This document shows, one piece after another, positions 8,850 to 47,400 of a DNA stretch of 64,000 bases. Within the stretch, counting starts at the first letter, position 1. Each line of letters opens with the position of its first letter. The stretch covers positions 22,585 through 86,584 of the forward strand of contig DHKB01000048.1 in assembly GCA_002407045.1 (NCBI GenBank), read 5' to 3'. A model generated the notes under the pieces. It searched no databases and was not told where the DNA came from. It saw nothing but the letters and a program-made list of their open reading frames with translations. A program made the translations under genes and the position numbers. This DNA is from Candidatus Bruticola papionis (lineage in GTDB: Bacteria; Vulcanimicrobiota; Xenobia; Xenobiales; Xenobiaceae).

Positions 8850-8879
8850 AATAATTAAGAAACGGAGCTTACCTTAAAA

Positions 8880-18294: not shown

Positions 18295-21200
18295 CTACTG
18301 CTTCTTCAGAACAATAGTAGCACCCGCAGGGAGGAAAATTCCATTTCCAGAGCTTACAGTACCGCCACCATTGCCAGTACCGGTGCCACCATAGCAGCGA
18401 GCGTTGGTATTAAACACTTCTTTCCACTGACCAGGAGGCAACTCCATACGATAGCCAGAGCGATCAGTATTGGCGAAGTTGGAAACTACCACAAACTCAT
18501 CAGATCCGCCATTGTCGCGTTTCCAAGCCAGCACTTTGTCGTCGTTGTGAGTATAAACTCGGCTAGTATTACCAGTAGCATTGAAAGCGGAAGAAGTACG
18601 ACGTAAAGCGACCAAATCGCGAGTCAAGGCGAATTGTCCAACCTGATTGGCCAGATCTTCAGCATCTTTCCTCTGCTCAGGATTCATCTCACAATAGCGA
18701 TCGAACAGCTTTTGCTCGTCAGCACTCATACGAGAGCGCTCTACTTCTCGAGAAGAATTGTCCATAGCAGCGCACTTAGCAAAGTGATCCAACTTGTCGG
18801 GAGTGACAGGGAACTTGATCCAGCTCATATCGGCTCCCCAAGTGGAAGTTAAACCGTGCTTAAAGTCGTTATTGGCCAAGAATTCTTCACCTTGGAAGAG
18901 CATAGGCACACCAGGGCCGGTTAAAGTGATAGCCGAAGCGGTACGAGCGATAGCGCGAGGGAAAGGCTGTTTGACAGCTTCGTCATCTTTGGAAGCTGCT
19001 GCACCGCGATGGATCCAGTTACCAGTATTACCTACTTCATCGTGGCTGTGAGAGTAAGTGACAGCACGACTCCAATCAGTTACGCCTACGTGGCAAGTGA
19101 TAGCTTCCATTAAGCGATCGGCGCTACCGACGCCCTGGGCCATTTCCAATAAGTCATCATGGAAGCGATCGTTCCATACACCGCTAAAGCCCATGCCCTT
19201 CTTTTCCCAACTGCCCTGACCGGATCCCTGAGTTTCAGACTTATCCATATCGGCGGCTACTAACCAGCTGCCACTAAAGTCTTCGGCTACTGTGTATACG
19301 TCAGGTTTAATCAAACGCAAAGAGCGGTTAATCTGACGCAAGGTATTCATACCCTCAATTTGCTCAGCGGAATTGCCTGTAGAGTGCAAAACTTGAGTAA
19401 AGTCGAAGCGGATACCATCGAAGCCAAACTCAGCAACTTGCTGTACAGCGTTGTCAGAATAGAAATCTTTGACGCTCTGGTTGGCGAAATTGGGCTTGGC
19501 GCCCCAAGGAGTGCAAGACTCGCCTTGCTGCCACCAATTGAAGAAGGAACGCTTGCCACCGTCGATACGCCCTAAAGGATCGTCGGCATCTGGCTTACCA
19601 GAAGTGTGGTTGTAAACCACGTCGGCCATAACATTGAAACCGCGTTTGTGGCTCTCATCTACAAAGAGCTTCATAGCGTCAGTACCAGAGATCCATACAC
19701 TCTTGGCGCCGGGCTGTTCGTCATCGGTAATGAGCTTGCGATCTAAAGCTTCCTGGCGATCCATTTCAAAACCATAGCTAGCCGCGCCGGCATAGTAATA
19801 GTCGGGAGTGTAGCCCCAGTCACGCTTGGCCCCAAACTCGTTAGTCGGCATAAGCTCGATAGTATCAATGCCTAAAGAAGCAAAGTAATCGAGGTTGTTG
19901 ATCATGTCTTCAAAGGTAGCCGGAACAGCATTATCCTTGGAGCTCATGAATGAACCGACGTGGGCTTCGTAAATTACGAAGTTGTTGTGATTGGTCTGAC
20001 GTCTGGGAACGTTATCGTATTGGAATTCAAAGCTAGACTCACGAATTAAAGATTTGCGAGCAGATCCGGGCTTGGGTTGGATAACGTTTGTGTAAGGATC
20101 ATTGAAAGGAGTAGCTATACGCTCTTGATTGCTGAGTTTGCCATCTCCATTGACATCACCGACCAACTTGCCGTCTTCTACAACTTGGTATTCGTATTGC
20201 ATACCGATCAGTTTGGGGAAATTGTTAACAGCGGTCACCCAAGCTGTGCCGGCGCCAGGGCTATCTACGCGATTCATATCGATAGAGCCGTCTTCGTTAA
20301 CACTATTGATCCAAGAGTATTTGTCGATAGGCTCAGTCTGATCTAATTTCCAATTGCGCAATACGTCTACGTCATGTTTATCGGCAGGTGAAGCTTGATC
20401 GTAGGGAATGCGCTCAGGTTTGCCCAAACGATCTAACAACTCTTGTTTGTTGAGTTGCTTGCCATTTTCATCACGCAAAACTAAACGCACACTGTCGGCA
20501 TTGGGGTGAGAATCGACTGTAAAACGTCCCCATTGAGGATCGTCGGCATAGTTGGGGCCGCCTTTACCGCTATCATCGTACCAACCGACTTCGAAGCCCA
20601 TAACGGGATCGACAAAGATACGCTCTAAGCCGCGCTGCTCACCTTGCAAATAACGAGCGTGGGGATCTGAATAGCGAACTTCTCCGCCCCAGCTGTTTTT
20701 TAAGACTTCGCCCTTTTCATTTAAAGCGGCATACTGGTAAGTTTTACCTTTGAGCTTACTCCAACCGTCGTTTTGAGTGAGCGTCCAAACGCCATTTTGC
20801 TCGTTTTTTTCCATGGGCAAGCGTTCTTCAATTTCGCCGGTCTGGGGGTTGCTTATTTCTACATAAAGCTTGTAATCGGCCAAATCACCTTTGCCCATTT
20901 CCGGAGACCAAGTCTGGAAACGAACGCCGTCTTCACCCTCTTTGTGGACGCCGAAAAGGTGCGTTTGCACTGGAGCGTAAGTCTGGACAGGATAATCTTC
21001 TAAATTGAAGTTGGGGTTGGTTTCGCTCATAACTAACCACTGAGCATTTTGCACTTTACCATCTTTGCCGGTAACATCGCCAACAACGCCCCAACTAAAT
21101 TGCTGATTTTGGCCAGTTTTAAGATCTACGGCCGCAGTAAAAATACCGTCTCCGGCCACGGCATCGCCATTTTTGCCGTCGTCGCGCATAGGAATAATCT

Positions 21201-21609
21201 TGTCGCCATTCCAGTGCTGATCATATAAACCGGTCTGATCGTTGAAAGATCCCTTCAAACCGATATTGCTAAGATCGACTTGCGGACAGCCGCGGCTGTC
21301 AAATTGGAAAAGGACTTGCTTTTTGTCGGTGCCTTCAGGCTGTACGGAAGCGTTTTCGGCCTTTACTTGAGCCGTGGGCATTTTGGGAGCACCGGCAGCA
21401 ACTTCTTTGCTATCGGTACTATTTAACGAAAAACTGTCTACGGGAACAGCCGAAGCGGACGCCTGAGGGGCAGTCTGCTTAGATGCAGCAACGCTATTAT
21501 TTTGTGCCACGGAGCCGGCCCGGAATAAGTCGGAAGAGCGTTCTATATTTATATTCATCAATTCCTTACTCTTTTCTACGTAGGTGACGAAATTTTTTGT
21601 CCTAAACAA
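18295..21609 (-). CDS. Large GH13 alpha-amylase family glycoside hydrolase with N-terminal accessory/CBM-like domains
   Basis: GH13 catalytic regions are present (GFDGIRFDFTQ, the FNVMADVVYNHTS His region, and downstream EVGNTG / YSHSHDE blocks). The maximal ORF starts at TTG 21609. An in-frame ATG at 21558 (MNINIE...) is an alternative. No Sec signal peptide is present. Confidence 0.8.
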   Translation of the reverse strand: MFRTKNFVTYVEKSKELMNINIERSSDLFRAGSVAQNNSVAASKQTAPQASASAVPVDSFSLNSTDSKEVAAGAPKMPTAQVKAENASVQPEGTDKKQVLFQFDSRGCPQVDLSNIGLKGSFNDQTGLYDQHWNGDKIIPMRDDGKNGDAVAGDGIFTAAVDLKTGQNQQFSWGVVGDVTGKDGKVQNAQWLVMSETNPNFNLEDYPVQTYAPVQTHLFGVHKEGEDGVRFQTWSPEMGKGDLADYKLYVEISNPQTGEIEERLPMEKNEQNGVWTLTQNDGWSKLKGKTYQYAALNEKGEVLKNSWGGEVRYSDPHARYLQGEQRGLERIFVDPVMGFEVGWYDDSGKGGPNYADDPQWGRFTVDSHPNADSVRLVLRDENGKQLNKQELLDRLGKPERIPYDQASPADKHDVDVLRNWKLDQTEPIDKYSWINSVNEDGSIDMNRVDSPGAGTAWVTAVNNFPKLIGMQYEYQVVEDGKLVGDVNGDGKLSNQERIATPFNDPYTNVIQPKPGSARKSLIRESSFEFQYDNVPRRQTNHNNFVIYEAHVGSFMSSKDNAVPATFEDMINNLDYFASLGIDTIELMPTNEFGAKRDWGYTPDYYYAGAASYGFEMDRQEALDRKLITDDEQPGAKSVWISGTDAMKLFVDESHKRGFNVMADVVYNHTSGKPDADDPLGRIDGGKRSFFNWWQQGESCTPWGAKPNFANQSVKDFYSDNAVQQVAEFGFDGIRFDFTQVLHSTGNSAEQIEGMNTLRQINRSLRLIKPDVYTVAEDFSGSWLVAADMDKSETQGSGQGSWEKKGMGFSGVWNDRFHDDLLEMAQGVGSADRLMEAITCHVGVTDWSRAVTYSHSHDEVGNTGNWIHRGAAASKDDEAVKQPFPRAIARTASAITLTGPGVPMLFQGEEFLANNDFKHGLTSTWGADMSWIKFPVTPDKLDHFAKCAAMDNSSREVERSRMSADEQKLFDRYCEMNPEQRKDAEDLANQVGQFALTRDLVALRRTSSAFNATGNTSRVYTHNDDKVLAWKRDNGGSDEFVVVSNFANTDRSGYRMELPPGQWKEVFNTNARCYGGTGTGNGGGTVSSGNGIFLPAGATIVLKKQ

Positions 21610-22048: not shown

Positions 22049-24448
22049 ATGTTAAAAAACAAGCGCGGCATAGTTCTGATTACCACGATGCTTACAGTCG
22101 TTTTAGTAATTATGCTGCTCAGCTCCGTAGTATATTCCAACTTAGGCAGCATGCGCCTAGCTTCCAATTTTTACGGCCGTGAAGAAGCTCTCATGGCTGC
22201 CCAATCTGGCGTAGAGTATGCCGTCACTTGTTTGCAAAGCGACATTACCTGGCGCGGCGATAAAACTGACAATGCTTTATCCGACTCAACTAAAGGCGTC
22301 AGTGTTCGCGAGCGTAACGGCAACGTCGTAGGCATGCTTACTACCGCCAACGGCAAAAAATCTTTTTTCCGTATAAAATTTAACTATGAAGATGGAGACA
22401 AAGGCTTTGATGGTATGGGGGATAGCTCCGATTCAGATCGCATACGTTCTCCTTACGTTTCTGTAAACAATCTTTACAACACCACCCCTACCAAAGTGTA
22501 TACCGCCTCACAAGATGGCAAATTAAAGATCAAACACAATCAAGACAAATACGGTAAGGATCGTATTGAAGCCGACGGTGCTAGCAGCTTCGCTTTAGGT
22601 AAGTCTAGTTGCTATCTGGTAGTGGAAGGCTTTGCTGGCAACGGTGTGCGCGATCTTACTTTAGATAAAGCCTTTGCCTTGACACCCGAAGAAGCTGCTG
22701 GTCTTATACCTAGACGCATAGAGACTTATTTAACTTTATCTTCCGACACTCAATTTACCGATTCGGTAGCTTGCGCCGCCGGTGATTTAACTACAGATTC
22801 AGATTTAATACGCATAAGCAACGCTAAAGGTGGTAGCTCTCCTAAGATGCGCAGCTTGCACAACTTGAAAGTTACTAGCGGCACGATCGATTTTGATAAT
22901 GGCCAGTTGTATTACGGAAGTGGCTACACTTATAGCATCAATGGAAAAACTATTGGTGAAGATAGCAAATATACTGCCCAGCAAAGTAGCGACACAAGTA
23001 GTTTTACTCGCCTGGAATGGGATGACATTACTAAAGCCAATTCCGAAGGACAAGAGTGCGTCAAAATAGAGGCGGGTACCTACGTTTGGAGCAAAGACCC
23101 CAAGACTAATAAAAATATTCTCAGACGTTATGTGGGCAACTATCCCCCTGGCACAGAAATTCCCTCTGGAACAAAGTGTTCGGAAGTTTCTAGCTTACCA
23201 GGCATGACTATAGATGCCGACAGTTTGACTATGAAGATCGACTCCAACCTCTTGGTGGCTTCCAACGGTAAAGCCTCATCTTTAATTATACGCTACGACA
23301 AAGAAGGCGAAACGGCCACTTCTAGGCCAGTAGTAGCTTTCTTAAAAAATGAAGCTACCCAAACTTCCCCTATTTTAAGTTCCGACCACGATATCTATAT
23401 TGAAGGTGCCACTTTAGGCGGCGGCTCTATTACTTCCAAAGAAAATATTTCCTTACAAGGTCCCAGCATCTTGGAATCAGATCCTGGCATAGGCGTTTCT
23501 ATTTACGCCCAAGGCGACGTCAACTTATTGCCTATTGAAGGCGTAACTGAGCAAGTTAAACAAGCCGAATCGGAAAAGCTGACTGATACACCTAGTATTG
23601 GTGGAGATGACAACAAAAAGGGTAATTATGTTTTTAAAGACGAGCACCAGCGTTATGACAATTTAACGAATAACTTTTACCATGAAGTAGAGAGCTATGT
23701 CAAAGAGGCGCTAGGTAATATTGTGGATTTGGAAACTAAAAGACGCCCATTTGAAAATGGCTACTCTTCGCTTGAAAAAGTTTGCAAACTATACTGCAGC
23801 TATATGAAAGAAGCCGCCACTGATTTGAAAAACAGCGGAAGCTCCATTGATGGGATGAAGGTATATCCAGCTCAAGACACCATAATGAAGTGGTGTGTAG
23901 AAGAAAAAATGACCAATAATGAAAGAATTATAACCTGTGCCGCAGTGTCGAATGTATACCCAGATTATGATCCATGTCTCGACTATCTTACTAACGACGA
24001 CAACTGGAAACTGACAGGTAACAACAGCAGTGATGACGAGAAAGAGACAGATGTAGATCTGTCTCCCGACAAAGTAAGCGACGTTCAAGACTACGTCGAT
24101 AAAGATCTGGCTAGTGATAATTTCCGCGATAATAAAGAGGCCCAGTTGGCCGATTTAAAAGCGCGTTATGGCAAAATCAAGTATTGTGACCAGGATATTT
24201 CCGGTGTTATTTATGCTTGGGGCAATATCAATGCCGATATAGGTAAAAAAAGTACCCTCAACTTGACCGGCGCCATGGTAGCTTACGGAGGAAATCCTAA
24301 AGATAAGGAACCTGGCAAAAACAAGAAGGGGGTCATCAAGATCAACGCCGGTACTATCGGCATGACCTTAGATCCAGACTACATGAGCATTTTCCTTTCT
24401 GCTAACGCCAAGCGTAAAGTAAAACAAGTAATGTTCTCTAGCTTTTAG
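22049..24448 (+). CDS. Paralog 1 of 4: large pseudopilin-like (GspK-type N-terminus) or signal-anchored surface protein
   Basis: AGGAGG lies 7 nt upstream of the ATG. The N-terminus MLKNKRGIVLITTMLTVVLVIMLLSSVVYSN has positive residues followed by G and ~20 hydrophobic residues, with no Glu at +5, as in GspK. The N-terminal module (~130 aa) and C-terminal module (~110 aa, ...YAWGNIN..LNLTGAMVAYG...) are conserved in all four paralogs. Confidence 0.7.
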   Translation: MLKNKRGIVLITTMLTVVLVIMLLSSVVYSNLGSMRLASNFYGREEALMAAQSGVEYAVTCLQSDITWRGDKTDNALSDSTKGVSVRERNGNVVGMLTTANGKKSFFRIKFNYEDGDKGFDGMGDSSDSDRIRSPYVSVNNLYNTTPTKVYTASQDGKLKIKHNQDKYGKDRIEADGASSFALGKSSCYLVVEGFAGNGVRDLTLDKAFALTPEEAAGLIPRRIETYLTLSSDTQFTDSVACAAGDLTTDSDLIRISNAKGGSSPKMRSLHNLKVTSGTIDFDNGQLYYGSGYTYSINGKTIGEDSKYTAQQSSDTSSFTRLEWDDITKANSEGQECVKIEAGTYVWSKDPKTNKNILRRYVGNYPPGTEIPSGTKCSEVSSLPGMTIDADSLTMKIDSNLLVASNGKASSLIIRYDKEGETATSRPVVAFLKNEATQTSPILSSDHDIYIEGATLGGGSITSKENISLQGPSILESDPGIGVSIYAQGDVNLLPIEGVTEQVKQAESEKLTDTPSIGGDDNKKGNYVFKDEHQRYDNLTNNFYHEVESYVKEALGNIVDLETKRRPFENGYSSLEKVCKLYCSYMKEAATDLKNSGSSIDGMKVYPAQDTIMKWCVEEKMTNNERIITCAAVSNVYPDYDPCLDYLTNDDNWKLTGNNSSDDEKETDVDLSPDKVSDVQDYVDKDLASDNFRDNKEAQLADLKARYGKIKYCDQDISGVIYAWGNINADIGKKSTLNLTGAMVAYGGNPKDKEPGKNKKGVIKINAGTIGMTLDPDYMSIFLSANAKRKVKQVMFSSF

Positions 24449-24456
24449 ATCTAAAT

Positions 24457-24508
24457 GTCTAAGCAATAAGGCCCGGGCGCTTAAGCGCCCGGGCCTTATT
24501 GCTTAGAC
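24457..24508. terminator. Perfect 52-bp palindrome (24-bp stem, 4-nt loop)
   Basis: gtctaagcaataaggcccgggcgc ttaa gcgcccgggccttattgcttagac sits immediately after the paralog-1 stop. It is probably a bidirectional intrinsic terminator, although no T-tract follows. Confidence 0.55.
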
Positions 24509-24608
24509 TAATTTGTACTGTCCCTAAAAAATCTTTATTTTTTTATTTACCCCGCTAAACGGCAAAAAAATGTTACAACCATAGAACGAAATATTAATAT
24601 TTGAGAAC

Positions 24609-24637
24609 TTGAATATTTAACCTATACAAAGTTTAAT
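24609..24637 (+). promoter_or_regulatory. Candidate sigma70-type promoter for paralog 2
   Basis: TTGAAT-17nt-TTTAAT lies in the AT-rich spacer ~115 nt upstream of ATG 24752. It has been read by eye only. Confidence 0.3.
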
Positions 24638-24751
24638 AAAGTGGGTAGGTTTTGCACTTAGTTTGCGGCAACTTTCATTTTTTAGCTCCATTTCGGCTGA
24701 ATTTATTTTGCTTAGGCAAGCATTCCGATCCTCATAGGGAGGTAAAAACTT

Positions 24752-27097
24752 ATGCGCAATAAGTATAAGCAAGGTATCGTCCTCATCACAACCATGCTGA
24801 CGGTCGTTTTGGTTATCATGTTGCTCAGCTCTGTAGTTTACTCCAATTTCGGTAATATGTGCCTTACCTCCAACTTCTACGGACGCGAAGAAGCAATTAT
24901 GGCCGCCCAATCAGGCGTAGAATATGCTTTAACCAAGTTGCAAAACAATATAACTTGGCAAGGTGACGATAAAAATAATCAGTTGGCCTCGACAGCCAAA
25001 GGTGTAAAAATTGTTGAAAACAGCGGTAATGTTTGGGGCATGCTCATTACTCCCAACGGACGTCGCTCTTTCTTTCGTATAAAATTCAACTACGAAGACG
25101 GCCCCAAGGGCTTTGACAATATGGACAATACGTCCGACAAGAACTATATCATTCACTCGCCTTACGTTTCTGTCAATAACTTATACAACCGCGGAATGCG
25201 TACTGTTTATACCGCTCCTCTCAATGGAATTTTACGCACTCAAAAATATACAGACGAATACGGCAAGGAGTGCTTAAAAGCTGCAGGCAACGCTAAAAGT
25301 TACGAATTACCCAAGTCCACTTGTGCACTCATTGTAGAAGGTTTTTCTGGTGTCGGCGTACGAGATCTAGATTTAGCTAAAATGAACGAGTTGCAAAAGC
25401 ATCTCGATTACTCCAAAGGGCTAGGCAGCAATATTATCGACAACGTCGTGGAAGTATATTTAACTTTCGATCCCCAAGCTGCTTGCACAAGTTCCGTACT
25501 GGGAGCGGGAGGCAAAATTTCGGCTAAAGCTTCCAATATCACTATAAAAAATGCTCAAGGGAGTAGCGCTCCCCGGCTGCGTAGTCTGAAAGATTTAAAT
25601 CTCACTTATAAAAATATTACTTTTGACAATGGACAAGCTATAGTCAGCGGTAATTTCTATAAAAACGGTACCGAGACTAAAGCAGGTGCTGTCAGGGGTT
25701 CCAATTACAATGTTATAAAAGCCTCCGACAAAGATACTGGTGATATTGCCCAAATCAAATGGAACGATGTCACTAAAGCCGACTCCGAAGGACAAAAGTA
25801 TACAACCATAAAAGGTGGCGTTTACGTTTGGCGCAAAAACGATCACAATAGCAACTATACTCTAACCCGCTACACTAAAAATCCATTTGACAAAAAGCAC
25901 AGATTCCGTAGCAAAAAGAATAAAAGCGAAGAGGTAAATGGCTACGGTTCAGCTTTTCAAGTAAACAAAGCTAAAGCCACTATAATTATCAGTGAAAACA
26001 TTAAAGTAGAAGATGGCCAATCGTTGACCATCATCTATGATGATAGTTGCAGTCAAGTTACTCGCCCAGTGGTGGCTTTTGTAAAAAATTCCCCTACTGA
26101 CAGCGATCCTATTTTAAGCGCAGACGGCGATATTACTATAAAAGGCGCTACTTTAGGCAGCGGTTCCATTACCTCACAGAAGAGCATCTCTTTACAAGGC
26201 CCCAGTATTTTGGAATCAGATCCTGGAGTAGGAGTTTCTGTTTACGCTGAGCACAACGTCAACTTTCTTCCTATCGAAAGCGCCACTCAGGCCGTGCAAG
26301 AGCAAAATAAAAACGTCGATTTCAACGCCGGACACCAAGCCTATTATGGCTACGATACCGAGAATGAGGCTTTCTCTTCTGGAGTTGCCGAATTACTCAA
26401 ACAAGCTAAAAAGAGTAGCAACGCCTCTTCTCTAACCAGTGAGGACGCGGAAAATTACTTAGAATATTATTTATATACAAATTATAAGCCTACGCCTCCT
26501 AGCTCCGAAAAGGTAGTTGCAATTGCTAAGCCAGATCTGAGCTCTACCCAAAATGCAGCCTTGCAAAAAGCCTTAGATAGCAGCAAAGCTATTTCCGGAA
26601 GTCCTATCGAAAATGCCATAAACCATTACCAAAACACAAGTAACTGGGCAACTTACTATCAAGCTTCTGCTGCCGCTTCTAATCCTACTGATAAAATCGT
26701 TGTCGATAGCAGAGCCGACATAAAAAAAGCTCAAACATTTCTCGATACTGAGGTAGTGAGCAACAACTTCCGCGACTATAAACAGCAGCAATTGAACAAA
26801 TTGCTCACTCGTTACGGTAAGCTTCGCTACTCAGATCAAGATATTTCTGGCATGGTCTACGCTTGGGGTAATATCAACTTGTCTATTGGCCAAAATAGCG
26901 CCTTGAATCTTAGTGGAGCTATGGTCGCTTATGGACAAAATCCCGACAAAGGCGTTCCCAAAGGCGATAAAGATCACGGGAATATCACTATTGAAGCTAA
27001 TACTATAGGCTTAACTTTAGATGCCAACTACCTGGATGCTTTTATAGCTTCCAATGCCCAAAGGAAATTAAAATACGCTATGTATTCTAGTTTTTAA
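24752..27097 (+). CDS. Paralog 2 of 4: pseudopilin-like/signal-anchored large surface protein
   Basis: A GGGAGG SD is present. The N-terminal and C-terminal modules are the same as in paralog 1 (QGIVLITTMLTVVLVIMLLSSVVYSN...; ...YAWGNINLSIGQNSALNLSGAMVAYG...YAMYSSF). The centre is divergent. Confidence 0.7.
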   Translation: MRNKYKQGIVLITTMLTVVLVIMLLSSVVYSNFGNMCLTSNFYGREEAIMAAQSGVEYALTKLQNNITWQGDDKNNQLASTAKGVKIVENSGNVWGMLITPNGRRSFFRIKFNYEDGPKGFDNMDNTSDKNYIIHSPYVSVNNLYNRGMRTVYTAPLNGILRTQKYTDEYGKECLKAAGNAKSYELPKSTCALIVEGFSGVGVRDLDLAKMNELQKHLDYSKGLGSNIIDNVVEVYLTFDPQAACTSSVLGAGGKISAKASNITIKNAQGSSAPRLRSLKDLNLTYKNITFDNGQAIVSGNFYKNGTETKAGAVRGSNYNVIKASDKDTGDIAQIKWNDVTKADSEGQKYTTIKGGVYVWRKNDHNSNYTLTRYTKNPFDKKHRFRSKKNKSEEVNGYGSAFQVNKAKATIIISENIKVEDGQSLTIIYDDSCSQVTRPVVAFVKNSPTDSDPILSADGDITIKGATLGSGSITSQKSISLQGPSILESDPGVGVSVYAEHNVNFLPIESATQAVQEQNKNVDFNAGHQAYYGYDTENEAFSSGVAELLKQAKKSSNASSLTSEDAENYLEYYLYTNYKPTPPSSEKVVAIAKPDLSSTQNAALQKALDSSKAISGSPIENAINHYQNTSNWATYYQASAAASNPTDKIVVDSRADIKKAQTFLDTEVVSNNFRDYKQQQLNKLLTRYGKLRYSDQDISGMVYAWGNINLSIGQNSALNLSGAMVAYGQNPDKGVPKGDKDHGNITIEANTIGLTLDANYLDAFIASNAQRKLKYAMYSSF

Positions 27098-27169
27098 AAC
27101 AATCCTAGTAACAACCTCTATAAGTTGTACCAATTCCTTATAGCTGATAGCAAAATTCGGAGAGAGAAT

Positions 27170-29608
27170 ATGTTAGAAAGAAACAAGAAAGGCATAGTTC
27201 TAGTGACGACCATGCTTACTGTCGTCCTAGTAATGATGCTTTTAAGTTCAGTAGTTTATTCTAACCTAGGCAGCTTTCGCCTAACAACGAATTTTTACGA
27301 TAAAGAAAATGCCCTTATGGCTGCCCAATCTGGCGCCCAATACGCTATAACTCGCCTACAAAGCGATATTCTCTGGAAAGCCAATCCTTCTACTCCATAC
27401 ACTTTTAAGACAAACGACTTCGAAGTCAAAGAAGAAGATGGCAACGTTTGGGGTATTTTATCCAGTGCTAATGGAAAAAAATCGGTCTTTTGCATAAAGT
27501 TTAATTGCGAAGATGGCCCTGGAGGCTTCGATAATATGAACGACAGTTCTAAAAAGATCGAATCTCCTTATATTTCCACTAACAATCTTTTCAGCAGCGT
27601 TCCTTGTATGGCTTATTCAGCCGATAAAAACGGATCTATCCAAGGCAAAACGGTCAACGAAAATGGCAAAGAAGTTTTTAAGCCCAATGCCGACGCCAAG
27701 CAAGTTACTATTCCTAAAGCCACTTGCAATTTAATAGTGGAAGGATTTAGTGGACCAGCTGTGCGTGAGGCCAGCTTATCTGAGCCTATCGACCCGAAAT
27801 CTTCCTGTGCACGACAAATTGTAGAAATTTACGTTTCTATAGATCCCAGTTCCTTAAATGTAGATTCAGCTATTAGCGCTTCAGGAAATATCGACGTTAA
27901 AACCGGCACCTTCAGATTAAGTAGTGGCGAAGGAAGCCAAGCTCCCAACATACGCTCTTTAGGCCATATTGCCTTAACAGGTCAAGTAAGCGCCGGAAAC
28001 GGTACTGTTTACTTTAACGACGGCTTTACAGTAAATGGAGCCACAGAAACAGATATAAAACACGAAAAAAGCACTTCCGGAGAGAATTTCGCTAAAATTA
28101 CTTGGGCTGACGTACCTAAAGCCACTAAAAGTGATACAAATTTACCCTCCGGAACTTACGTATGGGAAAAGAATCCCACAACCCAAGACATTGAGTTGCG
28201 CCATTATCCCACTATCATTTTTTATAATGGCAAACCGCTCCCCGACACCGGTTACCAAACTGTAAGTACAGGCAAATTTAAAGGCATGACCGTAGACAGT
28301 AAAAACTTAACGATCATGTTCGACCAAAATATGTATGTGCCAGGTGATTTGCTCATTCGTTCCAATATAAATGAATATGGCACCAGACCAATAGTTGGTT
28401 TCGTCAATAAAAACAAAGGCGACAACGGCACAACTATTTTAACAAGTAAAGGAAACATCACTATTTCCGGCGCAACTATGGGCAATGGAGCCATTACTTC
28501 CGAAGGCAATATCACCATGCAAGGCCCCAGCCTTTTGGAATCAGATCCTGGTGTAGGTGTTTCTATTTATTCTAAGGGAAACGTTACTATAGAACCAATC
28601 TATAATACTAGTGCCAGTATAGAAAATATAATACCCACTAACCATCCCGAGGGTAGCGGCCCTTACGATAATGTAGAAGTCGATCCCACTACCGGTGCAA
28701 CTAGTGAAAAAACCCCATCTTCTCCTTCTAATTCCGATGATGATGACGACGATGATGATGATGATGAAATTATTATGAACGTTGATCCAGAATATGACAG
28801 AGCTTATTCTATGGGTTATGCAAGTTACGCAGACAATTATAGCAGCCAATATGGCAATTCACAATGTGGAAAATGCCAAGAAAACGGAGGTCGTGCCTAT
28901 TGTAAAACTAAGGGCGTCTTTGACTTAACCAACAACGAAGGTTCTAGGATATTTAATGATTTGTATAAAGCTGGGTTTTACAAGCAAAATTTTAAGCAGT
29001 TTACAAATCTAAAAACTTTCAATCCCGGCTGTGATTGTCTTAATCACCAAAGTGACAGAACTGAGCATTGCTCTGGATGTAAATTCATTGATGCAGCCAA
29101 GCAAATTTATAAGCAAGGTCAGAAGGATGGTAAAAAGCATCGTAAGCATGACGACGACGATGATGACGACAACAATTCTAAGCCCTCTAAATCCGACGAT
29201 AGCAAAGGCATGGCTTCAATTGACGATCCTGGGCTTAGTGATAAACTGATAGATGGCTCAAAACAAACGGACAATTATGAAAACTATAAGCGCGAACAAT
29301 TAGACACTTTAATTGAGCGTTATGGCAATATCAAATACTCCGACCAAGAGATTGCTGGCGTTGTTTATGCTTGGAAGAATATCAATGTCAACATTGGCTC
29401 TGAGAGCCGTTTGAGTTTAACTGGTGCTATGGTAGCTTATGGACGCGAACCCAACAAAGATCAAAATGCTAGCAAAACTACCGATACTGGCAATATCAAT
29501 TACAATGCCAAAAGTGTCGATTTGACTTTTGATCCTAACTATCTAAATAAATTACTCAACGCTTCAGCTCAAAGAAAGTTGCAAATAAAAATGTTTGCCA
29601 ACTATTAA
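27170..29608 (+). CDS. Paralog 3 of 4: pseudopilin-like/signal-anchored large surface protein with poly-Asp tracts and Cys-rich insert
   Basis: ATG 27170 is preceded by GGAGAGAG. The longer ORF from 27125 lacks an SD. The N-terminal module KKGIVLVTTMLTVVLVMMLLSSVVYSN and C-terminal ...YAWKNINVNIGSESRLSLTGAMVAYG...KMFANY are conserved. A D10 tract and a D7 tract are present. Confidence 0.7.
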   Translation: MLERNKKGIVLVTTMLTVVLVMMLLSSVVYSNLGSFRLTTNFYDKENALMAAQSGAQYAITRLQSDILWKANPSTPYTFKTNDFEVKEEDGNVWGILSSANGKKSVFCIKFNCEDGPGGFDNMNDSSKKIESPYISTNNLFSSVPCMAYSADKNGSIQGKTVNENGKEVFKPNADAKQVTIPKATCNLIVEGFSGPAVREASLSEPIDPKSSCARQIVEIYVSIDPSSLNVDSAISASGNIDVKTGTFRLSSGEGSQAPNIRSLGHIALTGQVSAGNGTVYFNDGFTVNGATETDIKHEKSTSGENFAKITWADVPKATKSDTNLPSGTYVWEKNPTTQDIELRHYPTIIFYNGKPLPDTGYQTVSTGKFKGMTVDSKNLTIMFDQNMYVPGDLLIRSNINEYGTRPIVGFVNKNKGDNGTTILTSKGNITISGATMGNGAITSEGNITMQGPSLLESDPGVGVSIYSKGNVTIEPIYNTSASIENIIPTNHPEGSGPYDNVEVDPTTGATSEKTPSSPSNSDDDDDDDDDDEIIMNVDPEYDRAYSMGYASYADNYSSQYGNSQCGKCQENGGRAYCKTKGVFDLTNNEGSRIFNDLYKAGFYKQNFKQFTNLKTFNPGCDCLNHQSDRTEHCSGCKFIDAAKQIYKQGQKDGKKHRKHDDDDDDDNNSKPSKSDDSKGMASIDDPGLSDKLIDGSKQTDNYENYKREQLDTLIERYGNIKYSDQEIAGVVYAWKNINVNIGSESRLSLTGAMVAYGREPNKDQNASKTTDTGNINYNAKSVDLTFDPNYLNKLLNASAQRKLQIKMFANY
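28736..28768 (+). repeat. In-frame GAT/GAC trinucleotide repeat encoding D10-E
   Basis: gat gat gat gac gac gat gat gat gat gat gaa lies within paralog 3. Confidence 0.9.
29150..29170 (+). repeat. Second in-frame GAC/GAT repeat encoding D7
   Basis: gac gac gac gat gat gac gac lies within paralog 3. Confidence 0.85.
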
Positions 29609-29629
29609 AATACAACACAAGCTCGAACG

Positions 29630-29672
29630 AGGCCGCCGTTTTTCGCAAACGGCGGCCTTTTTTATTATTTTT
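29630..29672 (+). terminator. Rho-independent terminator after paralog 3
   Basis: ggccgccgtt tttcgcaa acggcggcc followed by tttttattatttttt. Confidence 0.8.
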
Positions 29673-29794
29673 TAATGATTTTGTGTAGGAACTTTTAGCT
29701 GCAACTAAAAAGGCGCTCTTTAGAATATTTTCTTATTTATTCGGAGTTTTCGCCATTTTATAGTTTTTTTAGTTTCCTCAGGAGAAAGTAGATC

Positions 29795-32167
29795 ATGGTC
29801 AGCAAACAAAGGAAAGGTATAGTGCTGATAACGACTATGCTCACAGTCGTTTTGGTTATTATGCTCTTAAGTTCGGTTGTATATTCCAATCTTGGCAGTT
29901 TAAGGCTTACTACCAATTTCTACGACAAAGAAACTGCCCTCATGGCTGCTCAGTCCGGCGCCCAATATGCTATCACCCGTCTACAAAACAATATTCTTTG
30001 GAAAGCTGATCCTACAACTGCTTACAAGCTGAAGACCAACAATTTTGAAGTAAAAGAAGAAGACGGCAATGTTTGGGGCATCTTAACCAGCACCAATGGC
30101 AAAAAATCTGTTTTCCGCATTAAATTTAATTGCGAAGACGGAGACGGTGGCTTGGACGGCATGAGAAATAGCGACCAAAAGATTGAGTCTCCTTATATTT
30201 CCACCAACAATTTGAGCAATAGTGTTCCTTGTTTAGCTTACCCAGCCGATAAAAATGGTGTAGTTAGGGGTAAAAACGTCAACAACGGGACAAAGACAGT
30301 ATTCAAGCCAGATACGGGTGTAAATGCTATTACAGTGCCCAAGGCTACTTGCAATTTAATAGTAGAAGGTTTCAGCGGCCCAGCTGTGCGCCAAGCCACT
30401 TTAGACAAACCTTTCAACTCAACTTCTGGGTACGCCAGTCAAGTAGTCGAACTTTATATATCTATAGATCCTAACTCTTTAAAATCAGACGCTGTAGTTA
30501 GTGCTGCAGGCAATATTACTGCCGATGTAAATCAATTTGCTTTGCGCACTTCCGAAGGCAGCGGCGCTCCCAATATGCGTTCTTTGGGCAATATCGACTT
30601 AAATATAAGTCAAGGTTTAGGTATAAGCAACGATACTACAGTTTATTATGGCGACTATTTCAATGTAAACGGCAGCCATAACGACCAAATAAAATCCCAG
30701 CAAAGCGATTCTGGTAAAAACTTCACAGCCATCACTTGGAATGACGTCCCCAAAGCTTCTGAAAATGATAATCCCATTACTCCAGGTACTTATGTTTGGG
30801 TTCGCAATGGCAGCCAGAACGAATTGCGCCACTATGCCAACAAAATCTACTACTACGGCACCACACTTCCAGATTCTGGCTATGAAGTCATGAATAAAGG
30901 TAATAACAAGTTTTCTGTTAACAACGAAAACTTGACTATCATGTTTGATAAAAATACTTATGTAGGCGGCGATATACTTATTCGTTCTGACATAAATGAG
31001 TATGGTACGCGCCCTATCGTAGGTTTTGCCAATGAAAAGAAAGGCGACAACAAAACCACCATTTTGACCAGTACTGGCAATGTTATGATCTCCGGCGCTA
31101 CTATTGGCAACGGTGCTATTACAGCTGCTGGCAATATAAATATACAAGGGCCCAGCATTTTGGAATCGGATCCCGGAGTAGGCGTCTCTATCTATGCCAA
31201 AGGCGACGTCAATTTGGAAACAATCTATAATACTACCGCCCATATGGAAGAAGTGCTGCCTACCGAAAATAAGGATACCCAAAAGCCTTACGATAACATA
31301 ACCGTAGATCCCACTACCGGCTTAGTTGAAGAAAAAGAGACTATAACCCAAGTCCCTACCGGAAGCGAACTTGAAGATGCCACTCTCAGTGCCGCCAACG
31401 AAACCAGCGTCAATCTCCGAAATTCTTGTGATTTGTGCCGGAATGCCCATAGGATTTATTGTTGCAGTGGTTCGGATAAAAGCCAATGGGGCTTTGTCAA
31501 TACGCCAGAAGCCATTGAATATTTACGCAATGTTTATGTCAAAGGTTTTAATGATACTGATCATAATAACGACGCCTTAAAGTATTACAAGCAGGTAGAC
31601 ACCAATGTTACTTTGTGCGGTTGTTTGTTCCATGACGGCGAAGAAATTAGGCCTCGTCCCCAAGAGCACAAAGACAGTTGTGAGTATTATAAAGACGTAA
31701 AGAAAATCTATAAACAAGCTCAAAAAGACGCTAAAAACAAGAAGAACTCCACCGATGAAGACAACGATATGACTACTGTTAAAGATCCAGACCTTAGCGA
31801 CAAATTAGTAGCTTCCGACCAACAAACTACCAACTACGAAAACTATAAAAGAGATCAACTTACTGAGCTGATAGGCCGCTATAATGGCATAAATTATTCA
31901 GACCAAGAAATTGCTGGTGTTATTTATGCTTGCGGTAATATCAATGTCAATATTGGCAAAGATAGTCGCTTAAATTTGACCGGTTCTATGGTAGCTTATG
32001 GTAAAGATCCGCAAAAAGATGGTGAAGCTACAAAATCCAATGGCAAAGGCAACATTTACTATAAAGCTAAAAGTGTAGAAATGACCTTCGATCCCAACTA
32101 CATCAATAAACTCTTAGAGGTAGCTGCTCAGCGCAAAGTTAAAATCAAGATGTTTGCCAACTACTAG
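29795..32167 (+). CDS. Paralog 4 of 4: pseudopilin-like/signal-anchored large surface protein with Cys-rich insert
   Basis: AGGAG SD is present. The N-terminal module RKGIVLITTMLTVVLVIMLLSSVVYSN is present. Paralog 4 is closest to paralog 3 (shared TTNFYDKE.ALMAAQSGAQYAITRLQ and the ...KMFANY C-terminus). Confidence 0.7.
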   Translation: MVSKQRKGIVLITTMLTVVLVIMLLSSVVYSNLGSLRLTTNFYDKETALMAAQSGAQYAITRLQNNILWKADPTTAYKLKTNNFEVKEEDGNVWGILTSTNGKKSVFRIKFNCEDGDGGLDGMRNSDQKIESPYISTNNLSNSVPCLAYPADKNGVVRGKNVNNGTKTVFKPDTGVNAITVPKATCNLIVEGFSGPAVRQATLDKPFNSTSGYASQVVELYISIDPNSLKSDAVVSAAGNITADVNQFALRTSEGSGAPNMRSLGNIDLNISQGLGISNDTTVYYGDYFNVNGSHNDQIKSQQSDSGKNFTAITWNDVPKASENDNPITPGTYVWVRNGSQNELRHYANKIYYYGTTLPDSGYEVMNKGNNKFSVNNENLTIMFDKNTYVGGDILIRSDINEYGTRPIVGFANEKKGDNKTTILTSTGNVMISGATIGNGAITAAGNINIQGPSILESDPGVGVSIYAKGDVNLETIYNTTAHMEEVLPTENKDTQKPYDNITVDPTTGLVEEKETITQVPTGSELEDATLSAANETSVNLRNSCDLCRNAHRIYCCSGSDKSQWGFVNTPEAIEYLRNVYVKGFNDTDHNNDALKYYKQVDTNVTLCGCLFHDGEEIRPRPQEHKDSCEYYKDVKKIYKQAQKDAKNKKNSTDEDNDMTTVKDPDLSDKLVASDQQTTNYENYKRDQLTELIGRYNGINYSDQEIAGVIYACGNINVNIGKDSRLNLTGSMVAYGKDPQKDGEATKSNGKGNIYYKAKSVEMTFDPNYINKLLEVAAQRKVKIKMFANY

Positions 32168-40341: not shown

Positions 40342-41904
40342 CTATTCAATAGTATCGCGATTTGTAACGCTATCAGCATCATCATAAGTATTGCCTCCCA
40401 CTACATTTTCATTTCTGGGAGCAATTTCTTCTGCAGCGACAGCATTGTCGGTAGCATATTCAGTTTTGGAAGCATGGCGGCGCATTGAAGAAACAGTAAC
40501 ATCCGAACCGGGACGAATAATAGCCGGTGAGGGGGCGACAGCTGAACGAGGCGAAGATTCTGGGTGATTGCTGCCTGCAACATAAGAAGCGGAAATAGGC
40601 GTCGGCCCAGCCCCAGGAGCGACTTTATTAGAGGCCTTGGAGACAGGAGAAGGTGCAGGTTGATAAGCAGCCGTGTCATAGGCACGCGTAGGTCGAGAGG
40701 CGACTTTGGCTTTTACTTTAGGCTGGGCGCTGTAAACGGGACGGACGCCAGCACGATGCGCAGGTACAGCAACACGCGGCTGAGAAAAAATTTTGGCACT
40801 ATGATGAGTAGGAGCTGCTGCAGATTGAGGAGCGATAGCTACAGGGGCAGCAGAAGTAGATTCAGTCGAGCTATTGTCTGCCACTGCAGTATAGCGTTCA
40901 GCATTAGGTTCATCTTCGGTAGCATTTGAGCTATAGTCGGAATTGGCACTCGTCTCTTCAGAGGTAGAGTCGTAGTTATCCTCTGAAGCAGAAGGCTCTT
41001 CCTCAACATAATTATCTTGAGCGGAGCCGTCTTCCATAGCTAAAGTACTTTCGGGTAAGTTGTACCCTTCACGATATTTATTTACCGCAGCTTGGGCTTT
41101 TTCCAAATCGATATTTTTTACTTCCAGCCGCCCTCTAGCACTACGATAAGCGATATTTTGAGAACTTAATACAGTACAAGCCTCTACAGGGCTAAAATCG
41201 CCCAAAGGCAGAACGACCCACTCCTCTTTCACTTTTGCTTCAGAAGCCGCGACCGAATTTGAAGGCGAAGGGCTAACTTTAGCTTGCTGCTCATCATCTC
41301 CACTCCCACAAGTAATAAAAGATAGGCAAATGAACATCAGCAAAATAATGGCCGCCACCACACCGACCAAATGCAAATTTACTTTTTGCATTATAGCTCG
41401 CAGCCGTTCGATATTGGGGATACGCTCTTCCAAAGCATTTTCTACAATAACAGAAGTGCGACTGGGAGAAGCAAACAAGTTGCGCAACACCGGAGGCATG
41501 GTCCAACGACTGCTATCTGCGGCAGAGAGCCCCTCAAAGTCGTGTTCTACTTGCTTAATAAGCTGAATTTCTTTGCTACAATCGCTGCACATAAATATAT
41601 GCAAACGGATATTGCGTTGTTCCTCTTTGCTCTGCCGCTTGTCATTGAATGAGTAACGGAACAATTGCTCGTGAGTAGGATGAGCATCGTAAACAGGCTT
41701 AAATCCACTCTTGGCCAATTCGCTCAGAGGACGCATCAAATCGTGCAAGCGCCGAACTTCTTCACGACAGAATTGGCATTCGGTCAAATGGGCCTCTACT
41801 TCGGCGCGATTCGCCTTAGCCAAGGAGCGCTCCGCGTAGGGTACCAACATAGCCTTTATATATTCATTTTGGCAAACTTCTGCGCTATTTTTCTTAGGTC
41901 TCAC
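40342..41904 (-). CDS. Zinc-finger (zf-HC2-type) anti-sigma factor with TM helix and long Ser/Ala/Pro-rich periplasmic tail
   Basis: The N-terminus contains two HxxxCxxC motifs (HLTECQFCREEV and HIFMCSDCSKEI). A single TM segment (VVAAIILLMFICLSFITC) and a ~300-aa low-complexity C-terminus follow. GTG start. Confidence 0.6.
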   Translation of the reverse strand: MRPKKNSAEVCQNEYIKAMLVPYAERSLAKANRAEVEAHLTECQFCREEVRRLHDLMRPLSELAKSGFKPVYDAHPTHEQLFRYSFNDKRQSKEEQRNIRLHIFMCSDCSKEIQLIKQVEHDFEGLSAADSSRWTMPPVLRNLFASPSRTSVIVENALEERIPNIERLRAIMQKVNLHLVGVVAAIILLMFICLSFITCGSGDDEQQAKVSPSPSNSVAASEAKVKEEWVVLPLGDFSPVEACTVLSSQNIAYRSARGRLEVKNIDLEKAQAAVNKYREGYNLPESTLAMEDGSAQDNYVEEEPSASEDNYDSTSEETSANSDYSSNATEDEPNAERYTAVADNSSTESTSAAPVAIAPQSAAAPTHHSAKIFSQPRVAVPAHRAGVRPVYSAQPKVKAKVASRPTRAYDTAAYQPAPSPVSKASNKVAPGAGPTPISASYVAGSNHPESSPRSAVAPSPAIIRPGSDVTVSSMRRHASKTEYATDNAVAAEEIAPRNENVVGGNTYDDADSVTNRDTIE

Positions 41905-46151: not shown

Positions 46152-46664
46152 TTAGCGCAAGCAATGCTCTACAATAGGCCGAATATAATCAGCACGCTTT
46201 TCCTTGGGGAGCTGTTCTAAAGTTTCGAACATTTGATCTACTAAAAGCATTTGCTGTTTGCGACGCAATTCTATGAGTTGGTTAACGTAATTCTTAACTA
46301 CAGCTCTATTTGGATTTTCAGAAGTAAGTTCTTTAGCCATTCGTCCTCGAAGTTCTTTTATAGAAGCTCTGATTTGCAACATTTGAGGACGATACTTTTC
46401 TCTCACTTGCTTGGCTTCGGGAAATTTTTGATACTCTTTGTCCCTGTCTTTGCGACTTATAAACTTACCCTTGGGCAAATTGTCTACAATATTGGTATGA
46501 TTGTTTGACTGGTGCTTAATTAAGTCGCCTTCGTTGATATTAACAACAGTCTTTTGCACACTACCATTTTCTACACAATTATCCCCTTCTTCGGCTAAAG
46601 CCCCACCACATGTAAAAGACAAAACACCAATAACAGCAACAAACAGCACAACCTTTTTAAACAC
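46152..46664 (-). CDS. Periplasmic Spy/CpxP-like (LTxxQ-motif family) stress protein
   Basis: Signal peptide, then a helical protein with repeated LxxxQ/ELR motifs (QMLQIRASIKELRGRMAKELT...LIELRRKQQMLLVDQ). It is the last gene of the ECF sigma operon. Confidence 0.5.
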   Translation of the reverse strand: MFKKVVLFVAVIGVLSFTCGGALAEEGDNCVENGSVQKTVVNINEGDLIKHQSNNHTNIVDNLPKGKFISRKDRDKEYQKFPEAKQVREKYRPQMLQIRASIKELRGRMAKELTSENPNRAVVKNYVNQLIELRRKQQMLLVDQMFETLEQLPKEKRADYIRPIVEHCLR

Positions 46665-46691
46665 GAAAATTATCCAACCTCTCTATCTTTG

Positions 46692-47384: not shown

Positions 47385-47400
47385 AAAAGAGCACTCCTTT

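Follow-up and report, generated by a model that had tools for sequence, protein, structure and literature searches.

What are the four large proteins encoded side by side in this genome of Candidatus Bruticola papionis, an uncultured gut member of the Xenobia (Vulcanimicrobiota/UBP9), and how does their most variable part change between strains? The window, i.e. the whole 64-kb stretch of DNA that was analysed, contains four tandem paralogs on the plus strand (P1–P4, 781–812 aa). They span exactly positions 22049–32167, as an initial annotation had stated, and each is preceded by a Shine-Dalgarno-like sequence ahead of the ATG. The annotation described conserved ends around a hypervariable centre, and read this as an assembly or anchoring module combined with a diversifying receptor-binding or antigenic module. 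The coordinates of the array and its features are listed in Table 1.

Table 1 Features of the P1–P4 array in coordinates of the window. The slash follows the Gly at the end of the leader.
Feature	Position	Strand	Description
P1	22049..24448	+	799 aa; PilX_N/GspK-like N-terminus, predicted β-solenoid, helical hypervariable insert
P1 leader-end Gly7 and long α1 helix (aa 7–64)	22067..22240	+	KRG/IVLITTMLTVVLVIMLL...
P1 β-rich solenoid scaffold, predicted (aa ~139–494, including conserved block aa 436–500)	22463..23530	+
P1 hypervariable insert (aa 495–681)	23531..24091	+	predicted helical module, low-confidence linkers on either side
Terminator-like hairpin	24457..24508	+	perfect 26+26-nt palindrome directly 3' of the P1 stop
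P2	24752..27097	+	781 aa
P2 leader-end Gly/α1 equivalent	24773-24946
P2 hypervariable insert (aa 507–662)	26270..26737	+
P3	27170..29608	+	812 aa; Cys-rich insert with poly-Asp runs on its flanks
P3 leader-end Gly/α1 equivalent	27191-27364
P3 hypervariable insert (aa 476–692)	28595..29245	+
Terminator-like hairpin	29629..29659	+	GC-rich, followed by a T run, 3' of the P3 stop codon
P4	29795..32167	+	790 aa; Cys-containing insert
P4 leader-end Gly/α1 equivalent	29816-29989
P4 hypervariable insert (aa 476–670)	31220..31804	+

The paralogs form the two subgroups proposed by the annotation. P3 and P4 share 59% identity and P1 and P2 share 45–47%, with 35–38% for the cross pairs. The codons it quoted for the GIVLITT segment of P1 and P2 are exact, and its estimate that roughly half of the codons differ synonymously agrees with the 36–73% of identical aligned residues that are encoded by different codons. 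Pairwise pS over the full length is saturated (0.36–1.15) and the longest exact DNA word common to any two paralogs is at most 19 nt. These sequences therefore bear out the original proposal of old duplications without recent gene conversion. Each paralog has positional orthologs in other strains, and a backbone dN/dS of 0.03–0.09 between orthologs indicates purifying selection.

The boundaries of the modules had to be redrawn. The ends, first described as near-identical, are 56–80% identical pairwise in the N-terminal 130 aa (49% of columns invariant in all four proteins) and 44–70% identical in the C-terminal 110 aa (35% of columns invariant); only the stretch of aa ~7–33 is nearly invariant among the paralogs. 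Similarly, the hypervariable centre does not extend over ~450 aa. Residues 131–435 show moderate conservation (29–57% identity), and residues 436–500, which contain the motif GATxGxGxITS...QGPSxLESDPGxGVSxY, are conserved like the ends (51–75%). The truly variable module comprises ~190 aa (aa ~495–690), with 9–32% identity, a single invariant column and differing lengths (156–217 aa). The insert of P4 is distantly homologous to that of P3.

All four proteins match PilX_N (PF14341) at aa 6–56. The P1 match (32.5 bits, E 8e-8) lies above the gathering score of 25.5 bits, those of P2–P4 (20.3–24.9 bits, residues 7–57) fall just under this cutoff, and PF14341 is precomputed on many of the database homologs. 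The N-terminus consists of a short basic leader with Gly as its last residue and, after it, a hydrophobic α1N of ~20 residues (MLKNKRG/IVLITTMLTVVLVIMLLSSVVY). The leader-end Gly (position -1) hardly varies among 68 homologs. At +5 all four proteins have Thr instead of Glu, and the Pfam matches at E up to 1 do not include the N_methyl motif (PF07963). GspK/PilX-class subunits are typically without Glu5. The Thr at +5 does not exclude this subclass, because the missing Glu5 is characteristic of it. The missing Glu5 and N_methyl motif are also compatible with a plain signal-anchor.

The N-terminal 60 aa weakly resemble GspK (E 8e-5; NCBIfam NF037980, 22 bits against a cutoff of 130). We found no full-length GspK match (NF037980/T2SSK), and the GspK α-domain is absent. 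P1–P4 thus share the Gly-ended leader and the hydrophobic α1 without Glu5 with the PilX/GspK class; in contrast to it, the match is limited to the first ~60 residues and the proteins are 2.5–4 times larger. A search with the family profile yielded 364 clusters at E<=1e-30; where members have a name at all, it is just 'hypothetical' or 'PilX N-terminal domain-containing'. Literature searches on Xenobia, UBP9 and Bruticola turned up no account of the family.

As modelled by AF2, P1 and P4 (P1 pLDDT 85, P4 pLDDT 83.6; pTM 0.71) consist of a helix (aa 6–64), a four-strand sheet, a β-rich body, an insert made of helices and a sheet at the C-terminus. A top structural match, over 265 residues, is ComZ of Thermus thermophilus (PDB 6QVI; PMC6561018). 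At the level of the predicted fold, the models agree with the ComZ type, in which an ice-binding-protein-like β-solenoid is inserted into a pilin module. A Foldseek search of the PDB with the P4 model gave nothing significant. A PDB sequence search with the family profile and the N-terminal 135 aa matched no chain even at E 10, and no sequence homology to ComZ was found, so that the similarity to ComZ, as seen in the models, is structural only. Likewise, the ice-binding family (DUF3494) has no model among the Pfam/NCBIfam matches at E up to 1, and the likeness to ice-binding proteins is in fold only.

The models bear on the possibility that P1–P4 are envelope-anchored β-helix surface proteins, such as adhesins or a coat, held by an uncleaved signal-anchor and similar to pilins only in the helix. 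We consider this unlikely. The predicted 59-residue helix packs on the four-strand sheet like a pilin α1, the Gly ahead of the hydrophobic stretch is nearly invariant, and ComZ ranks among the top structural matches, over 265 residues. Four independent distant homologs are, moreover, encoded in operons with PilV/PilW-like prepilins, as described below.

Transformation requires ComZ, which is a DNA-binding protein (PMC6561018). With the same predicted architecture, P1–P4 could be competence-pilus DNA receptors that function as ComZ does, but this is very improbable. They have no sequence similarity to ComZ, no competence genes lie nearby, and the acidic inserts, with their poly-Asp runs in P3, are unfavourable for DNA binding. 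Nor would such a function explain why four divergent copies exist and why their heads differ from strain to strain. P1–P4 differ from ComZ in further respects: DNA binding is not expected here, they exceed ComZ in length by ~250 aa, they have an additional hypervariable insert that is predicted to be folded, and they occur in tandem arrays of 3–6 away from pilin genes, whereas comZ is a single gene beside pilA1-3. A PilA2-like partner gene is not adjacent within the window.

The genomic context of distant homologs, which match the family profile with E values from 1e-53 to 1e-128, also favours a link to pilins. At four loci (L032, L033, L038 and L039) they form tight operons with canonical prepilins that have Gly-1 and Glu+5, such as QQG/ASVLELVV at L032 and RIG/FTLAEVLL and AG/YTVLEVMV at L033. 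The homologs stand where PilX would be expected, behind genes for PilV- and PilW-like proteins; at L039 the order is PilV-like, PilW-like, family member. Relatives of the partner genes are named prepilin-type or PulG pseudopilin by JGI. Unlike these and the PilX/GspK class, the gut copies are unlinked from PilV/W-like partners. The large ORFs of the window include no canonical prepilin, prepilin peptidase (A24), PilB/C/M-Q or GspD-F gene, and none was found within 10 kb of any gut array (scanned flanks of L021, L026, L029 and L030). The canonical pilin of L031 gave 5 homologous matches, none from gut genomes, and the PilW-like partner (profile A4) gave 21, none named as Bruticola. Pili and a diderm envelope are described for the only representative of the phylum in culture (PMC9758169).

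The PulG annotations raise the possibility that P1–P4 are not surface-exposed pilus tips but pseudopilus-tip proteins, equivalent to GspK, of a type II secretion system (T2SS) whose substrate is possibly the neighbouring GH13 α-glucan enzyme. A large GH13 gene is divergently adjacent at every syntenic locus, including the single-copy relative L031, and a further array, at L021, has a GlgB-like GH13 gene close by. The substrate of the classic Pul secreton, a pullulanase, also belongs to GH13. The GspK-like N-terminus is consistent with such a role, and the pilin domain of ComZ is itself closest to GspK (PMC6561018). The assignment is nevertheless quite unlikely. By eye, the N-termini of the GH13 proteins are without the hydrophobic stretch of a signal peptide, and the lack of a GspK α-domain, the GspK score far below cutoff and the lack of T2SS genes in the regions scanned above all speak against it. 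A periplasmic tip, furthermore, gives no obvious reason for 3–6 copies or for the exchange of a 190-aa cassette.

This exchange is seen when strains are compared. dN/dS among the four paralogs is uninformative, with pS in the above range everywhere, and orthologs from syntenic loci were used because of this saturation. A uniform dN/dS along the genes or an identical array in related genomes, either of which the initial annotation would have taken as an argument against diversifying selection, was not observed. Relatives carry the array at the same locus, with a copy number that ranges from 1 (L031) to at least 6 and a composition that varies. The N:S ratio of the insert is 1.7–4.9 times that of the backbone in nine of ten ortholog pairs, eight of them significant (Fisher p down to 1e-11), and non-synonymous evolution of the insert is 2–6 times faster than that of the body. 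Averaged over the insert, dN/dS is 0.1–0.46 and in no case above 1, which does not demonstrate the positive (diversifying) selection originally proposed. The main mode of change is the replacement of whole inserts.

P1 is the most polymorphic slot among strains. In 25 P1 ortholog clusters the identity is 90–100% outside aa ~510–670 and on average 40–49% inside. Pairs with 93–99% identical backbones have inserts that are 17–35% identical. Among pairs with backbones at least 97% identical, 41% carry inserts that are less than 40% identical or unrelated, which argues that very old insert alleles are kept side by side. Strains L001 and L004 are 80–99% identical per 200-bp window across 22 kb; the sole island of divergence is ~500 bp in the P1 insert (47–54% identity). 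Between L007 and L009, backbone dS is 0.02–0.13, but dS reaches 1.6 in the P1 insert (34% identity) and 0.23 in the P3 insert. The reverse case occurs in P2 of L016 and L018, with a backbone dS of 1.59 and an insert dS of 0.23. Across strains, P2 keeps the same length, its insert and backbone diverge in parallel, and no swaps were seen. Copy 4 of L007 and L009 was rejected as the P4 ortholog, as a fifth copy is closer (79–88% against 74%). The swap statistics for P4 are weak and not relied on, because that fifth copy is the true ortholog.

Because insert dS is saturated even between near-identical strains, the sequences indicate that diversification proceeds mainly by recombination that exchanges cassettes of old alleles. 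The insert could, however, be a tolerant loop under relaxed constraint, and the cassette pattern a by-product of ordinary recombination among diverged strains. We regard this as a substantial possibility, though on balance unlikely. The dN/dS of the insert, below 1 everywhere, and the P2 insert, which tracks its backbone, would fit a tolerant loop. In the distant homologs at L031 and L032 the insert site is a short, disordered, low-complexity Gly/Asp/Glu loop, and in an exhaustive profile search most relatives match in two stretches, skipping the insert region. On the other hand, the inserts are predicted to be folded (AF2 helices with pLDDT 80–92 in P1 and 70–89 in P4) and are under purifying selection within one allele type (w 0.1–0.3). 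Relaxed constraint also fits poorly with a P1 insert that is the only divergence island in a 22-kb locus and with the frequency of unlike inserts on near-identical P1 backbones.

The donors of new P1 inserts do not appear to be the neighbouring genes. We found no silent cassettes or inter-paralog donors, and insert types stay within paralog classes, with the exception of the distant P3/P4 homology. The 64-kb window contains no family fragments outside the four genes, the array no long near-identical direct or inverted repeats, and Pfam scans of the window's large ORFs no RT or recombinase domain. Signs of programmed variation, i.e. silent cassettes, invertible segments or shufflons, or a template repeat with an RT, were thus not found. 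As in Neisseria pilE/pilS and diversity-generating retroelements, variation is concentrated in a defined segment of a putative pilus or ligand-binding protein. In contrast to both systems, the window has no silent partial copies or near-identical template repeat. The variation distinguishes strains from one another, its dS is saturated, and it is not programmed inside a single genome.

Taken together, we favour the interpretation that P1–P4 are probably modular minor pilins of ~800 aa, of the PilX/GspK class and with ComZ architecture, whose insert cassettes are exchanged between strains. Following prepilin processing, the hydrophobic-then-amphipathic α1 behind the Gly-ended leader would insert, together with the small pilin-type sheet, into a filament tip complex. 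The triangular β-solenoid would act as a scaffold. The insert, predicted to be folded, would lie where the solenoid ends and the C-terminal strands begin and may be exposed; each protein also has a conserved C-terminal β segment. A type IV filament machine encoded elsewhere could start filaments on a minor-pilin complex that includes one P protein, which would place the solenoid and the insert at the tip of the filament. A cell would then own several alternative tips, four here and three to six or more in relatives. The insert would be the specificity or antigenic determinant. In P1 and P3 it is swapped among strains as a cassette, probably by homologous recombination in the conserved sequence on either side, and the alleles would come from old classes that the population keeps. 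Candidate selective agents are host ligands, immunity or phages. Of the two-module concept of the initial annotation, the combination of an assembly and a variable module fits the pilin-like α1, solenoid and insert; receptor binding or antigenicity of the latter can only be inferred.

A division into an assembly scaffold and an exposed variable part has precedents. Flagellin has conserved N- and C-termini and a hypervariable centre, and type IV major pilins have hypervariable regions. In both, an assembly scaffold under strong purifying selection carries an exposed, strain-variable region, whose variation often arises by recombination of old alleles. P1–P4 differ in that the insert lies near the C-terminal third of a putative tip subunit, not in the centre of a major subunit, and in that several alternative genes stand in tandem. 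A pilin carrier with a bulky effector is likewise found in the modular pilins S. sanguinis PilB/PilC, ETEC CofB and V. cholerae TcpB, which are described as displaying their effector modules at the pilus tip, where these serve in adhesion or in binding a ligand (PMC8179133). According to the parts of that source consulted, these carry recognisable domains (vWA, lectin, β-repeat), and strain-level cassette exchange or tandem arrays are not mentioned for them (PMC8179133); the effector here is without a known fold.

More tentatively, and with less than even confidence, we propose that an uncultured gut lineage of Vulcanimicrobiota possesses a 'multi-tip' type IV pilus, in which 3–6 interchangeable ComZ-like tips with ancient, traded head alleles form a serotype or specificity system. 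If so, its logic would be comparable to that of flagellin or O-antigen types, but on a tip pilin, and host ligands, IgA or phages that bind the tip could drive it; the lineage is known from human and animal gut. Modular tip pilins are thought to set T4P binding; few are characterised and we found none from this phylum. The array gives a likely function to a large uncharacterised family and represents a natural example of cassette exchange at a putative pilus tip. The ~190-aa module also offers a defined target for allele typing in gut metagenomes and for binding assays with ligands, antibodies or phages. Should the heads act as adhesins, they would be a candidate means of attachment to the host or to food particles in a lineage seen in Hadza and rumen metagenomes.

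The intergenic regions give some indication of how the array is expressed. A 26-nt motif common to the upstream regions of P1 and P2 is probably due to chance, because it is not kept in related loci. The gap between P2 and P3 is 72 nt long and without a hairpin, and P3 is probably co-transcribed with P2. With the terminator-like hairpins behind P1 and P3, the array would comprise at least three transcription units: P1, P2–P3 and P4.

The sole Pfam match in P1-P4 is PilX_N at residues ~6-57, a stretch that the NCBIfam model GspK also matches weakly. A nearly invariant Gly closes the leader; IVLITTMLTVVLVIMLL comes next, and Thr occupies position +5. In the AF2 models (P1 pLDDT 85, P4 pLDDT 84, pTM 0.71), a 59-residue α1 helix is followed by a four-strand sheet, a long β-rich body, the hypervariable insert and, at the C-terminus, a further sheet. 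The models make the P1 insert helical, with low-confidence linkers on both sides, and give that of P4 both helices and short strands. The same domain combination is found in ComZ, the Thermus thermophilus tip pilin, where an ice-binding-protein-like solenoid is inserted before the last strand of a GspK-like pilin domain; ComZ was argued to be unable to fit the filament body and therefore to cap the tip (PMC6561018). At the sequence level, the P1-P4 family matches no solved structure. We consider it probable that P1-P4 are alternative ComZ-like tip pilins whose insert is an exposed module that sets specificity or acts as an antigen. Assembly would then be the role of the conserved α1 helix, solenoid and C-terminus. 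From the pilin-like character we infer a surface-filament tip that would bind a ligand; P1-P4 might instead be DNA receptors of the ComZ kind. Modular tip pilins (PMC8179133) and the ComZ-type architecture (PMC6561018) are already known. Our literature searches found no description of tandem tip-subunit arrays with a population-exchanged head cassette, or of the P1-P4 family in Xenobia.

An exhaustive profile search returned 1305 clusters at E<=1e-3, of which 364 reach E<=1e-30; the majority are 600-770 aa long and matched in two stretches that omit the insert, and the few that are named are called 'hypothetical'. Four independent distant members lie in tight operons with canonical prepilins (Gly-1, Glu+5). 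A PilW-like gene is located upstream in L032 (260 aa) and L038 (245 aa), two prepilins of 157 and 262 aa follow in L033, and L039 has the order 143-aa PilV-like, 281-aa PilW-like, family member. JGI annotates relatives of the PilW-like partner as prepilin-type or PulG. These operons and names assign to the family the position that PilX/GspK occupies among the core minor pilins. At the insert site, L031 and L032 have only a Gly/Asp/Glu-rich loop; in the examples examined, a predicted folded head of ~190 aa is present in gut-associated members, whose genes are multiplied and separated from the prepilin partners. Near the gut arrays, neither pilus machinery nor partner genes turned up, and a Pfam scan of the window's large ORFs matched no pilus or secretion domains. 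P1-P4 could also be anchored adhesins that act outside any filament. The phylum's only cultured member, a diderm, bears type IV pili (PMC9758169). About 4 kb 3' of the family member, single-copy relatives carry a gene for a canonical type IV pilin ('RGFTIVEVL'), which has only 5 database homologs. On two unrelated contigs, distant members are followed directly by an HTTM (vitamin-K-dependent carboxylase-like) gene.

Alignment confirms that the four tandem ORFs P1-P4 are paralogs, and recovers the two subgroups of the initial annotation (P3-P4 59% identical and P1-P2 45-47%, against 35-38% for cross pairs). Its heavy synonymous divergence is equally evident: the quoted GIVLITT codons are exact, a codon-aware comparison finds different codons at 36-73% of identical residues, and every 30-codon window is saturated, with a pS of 0.36-1.15. 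Any two paralogs have at most 19 nt of DNA in common as an exact word, so that, as first claimed, there has been no recent conversion between them. The ends are conserved, but not near-identical as described, with pairwise identities of 56-80% over the N-terminal 130 aa and 44-70% over the C-terminal 110 aa. A uniformly hypervariable centre of ~450 aa is not found: identity is 29-57% over residues 131-435, the segment 436-500 is conserved to the same degree as the ends, and the hypervariable part of each paralog is a single insert of 156-217 aa. A CxxC...YC...CxC...H...C pattern is conserved between the P3 and P4 inserts and could reflect disulfides or metal binding. Poly-Asp runs bracket the Cys-rich core in P3.

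Nei-Gojobori estimates for ortholog pairs give whole-gene dN/dS values of 0.04-0.30 for the paralogs and 0.01-0.10 for neighbouring housekeeping genes. The backbone lies at 0.03-0.09 in most pairs and the insert at 0.08-0.48 (mostly 0.1-0.46). In nine of ten pairs, differences in the insert have an N:S ratio 1.7-4.9 times as high as in the backbone, with eight significant (Fisher p down to 1e-11). Thus, dN/dS is clearly uneven along the genes, with the insert above the backbone as the initial annotation would predict. The insert value never exceeds 1, and the diversifying selection proposed there is not borne out, positive selection not being demonstrated. The variation may alternatively be neutral, in a tolerant loop.

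Between the related contigs L001 and L004, dS is ~0.2-0.4 over 22 kb and identity is 80-99% per 200-bp window, the sole exception being a ~500-bp island of 47-54% identity that coincides exactly with the P1 insert. In the nearly identical pair L007 and L009 (backbone dS 0.02-0.13), the P1 inserts show 34% identity and a dS of 1.6, and the P3 inserts a dS of 0.23 against 0.02 in the backbone. P2 of L016 and L018 shows the converse (backbone dS 1.59 but insert dS 0.23). These comparisons indicate that inserts are replaced wholesale, through import of old alleles by recombination in the conserved flanks rather than bursts of point mutation, because synonymous sites diverge along with non-synonymous ones. 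Among P1 clusters, 41% of pairs with backbones >=97% identical have inserts that are <40% identical or unrelated, and 25 close orthologs carry at least 6-9 insert types. In the database clusters, P2 insert divergence follows the backbone, P3 shows swaps among distantly related Cys-rich types, and the P4 swap data are too thin and confounded by P4', an extra P4-like copy. No insert types crossing paralog classes were seen, and the window contains no silent copies.

Database searches recovered homologs solely from metagenomes and MAGs labelled Candidatus Bruticola (class Xenobia, phylum Vulcanimicrobiota), UBP9 or 'Eremiobacteraeota', including Hadza human-gut and goat-rumen assemblies. The arrays differ between strains in copy number and composition, in line with the turnover first suggested. 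There is one copy in L025, L026, L029 and L031, two in L017, three in L012, at least three in L016 and L018 (contigs that break off inside the array or at its edge), four in the window, L001, L004 and L022, five in L007 and L009 (order P1-P2-P3-P4'-P4) and at least six in L021 and L006. L006 has four P1-like copies, one P4-like copy and a P2-like copy split into two overlapping ORFs; the split reflects either pseudogene formation by frameshift or a fault in the assembly, and would fit birth-and-death turnover. The window, L001 and L004 show clear positional orthology for all of P1-P4, and L007 shows it for P1-P3; in L007 the true P4 ortholog is the fifth copy. Orthologs are 75-97% identical, as opposed to 34-60% between paralog classes.

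Coordinates of the array, its neighbours and features of related loci
Feature	Locus	Position	Strand	Description
P1	window	22049-24448	+	799 aa ORF
P2	window	24752-27097	+	781 aa ORF
P3	window	27170-29608	+	812 aa ORF
P4	window	29795-32167	+	790 aa ORF
P1 insert	window	23531-24091	+	hypervariable segment
P2 insert	window	26270-26737	+	hypervariable segment
P3 insert	window	28595-29245	+	hypervariable segment
P4 insert	window	31220-31804	+	hypervariable segment
Palindrome	window	24457-24508		3' of P1
Poly-Asp runs	window	28731-28764; 29148-29169		10 Asp; 7 Asp
ORF in P3	window	28541-28849	-	102 aa
ORF in P4	window	30617-31282	-	221 aa
GH13	window	18295-21609	-	
GH13	L001/L004/L007	~6245-9860		
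GH13	L031	4264-7422		
GlgB-like GH13	L021	3007-5067		
Split P2-like copy	L006	18111-20590		two ORFs
Canonical pilin	L031	15953-16393	-	
Canonical pilin	L025	~14884	-	
HTTM gene	L032	3133-4674		
HTTM gene	L036	2251-3627		
Tandem subtilases	window	2524-4092; 4269-5720		Peptidase_S8, each with fervidolysin-like N-terminal prodomain
Sigma factor cluster	window	46152-48018		ECF sigma factor, zf-HC2 anti-sigma protein, Metal_resist protein
Second zf-HC2 protein	window	40342-41904		long protein, Ser/Ala/Pro-rich tail
Sel1 protein	window	59427-61478	-	683 aa, 13 Sel1 repeats

All four paralogs have a Shine-Dalgarno-like sequence 6-9 nt 5' of the ATG. Beginning 9 nt past the P1 stop codon is a perfect 52-nt palindrome (26+26-nt arms, no loop), which appears terminator-like, yet is unusual in length and perfection. 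A GC hairpin with a T run lies 3' of P3, and P2 and P3 are 72 nt apart. The hairpins after P1 and P3, together with this gap, suggest that the array is split into at least three transcription units. The antisense ORFs within P3 and P4, the latter overlapping the conserved solenoid-coding part, are probably spurious. No tRNA or Rfam families were found in the window.

Housekeeping genes flank the array: on the 5' side one for a GH13 enzyme (1104 aa, divergently oriented), on the 3' side one for a CN-hydrolase. In close relatives the array is always located between these two. A less likely reading, which takes the conserved GH13 neighbour into account, is that P1-P4 form the tip of a T2SS pseudopilus; the proximity could reflect no more than conserved synteny, or a functional link. 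The large GH13 α-glucan enzyme (1052-1167 aa) divergently adjoins the array in every syntenic locus, even in L031, a high-GC relative with a single copy. On visual inspection, the N-terminus of the enzyme is without the hydrophobic stretch that a signal peptide would have. A GlgB-like GH13 gene is located 2 kb from a second array, on L021.
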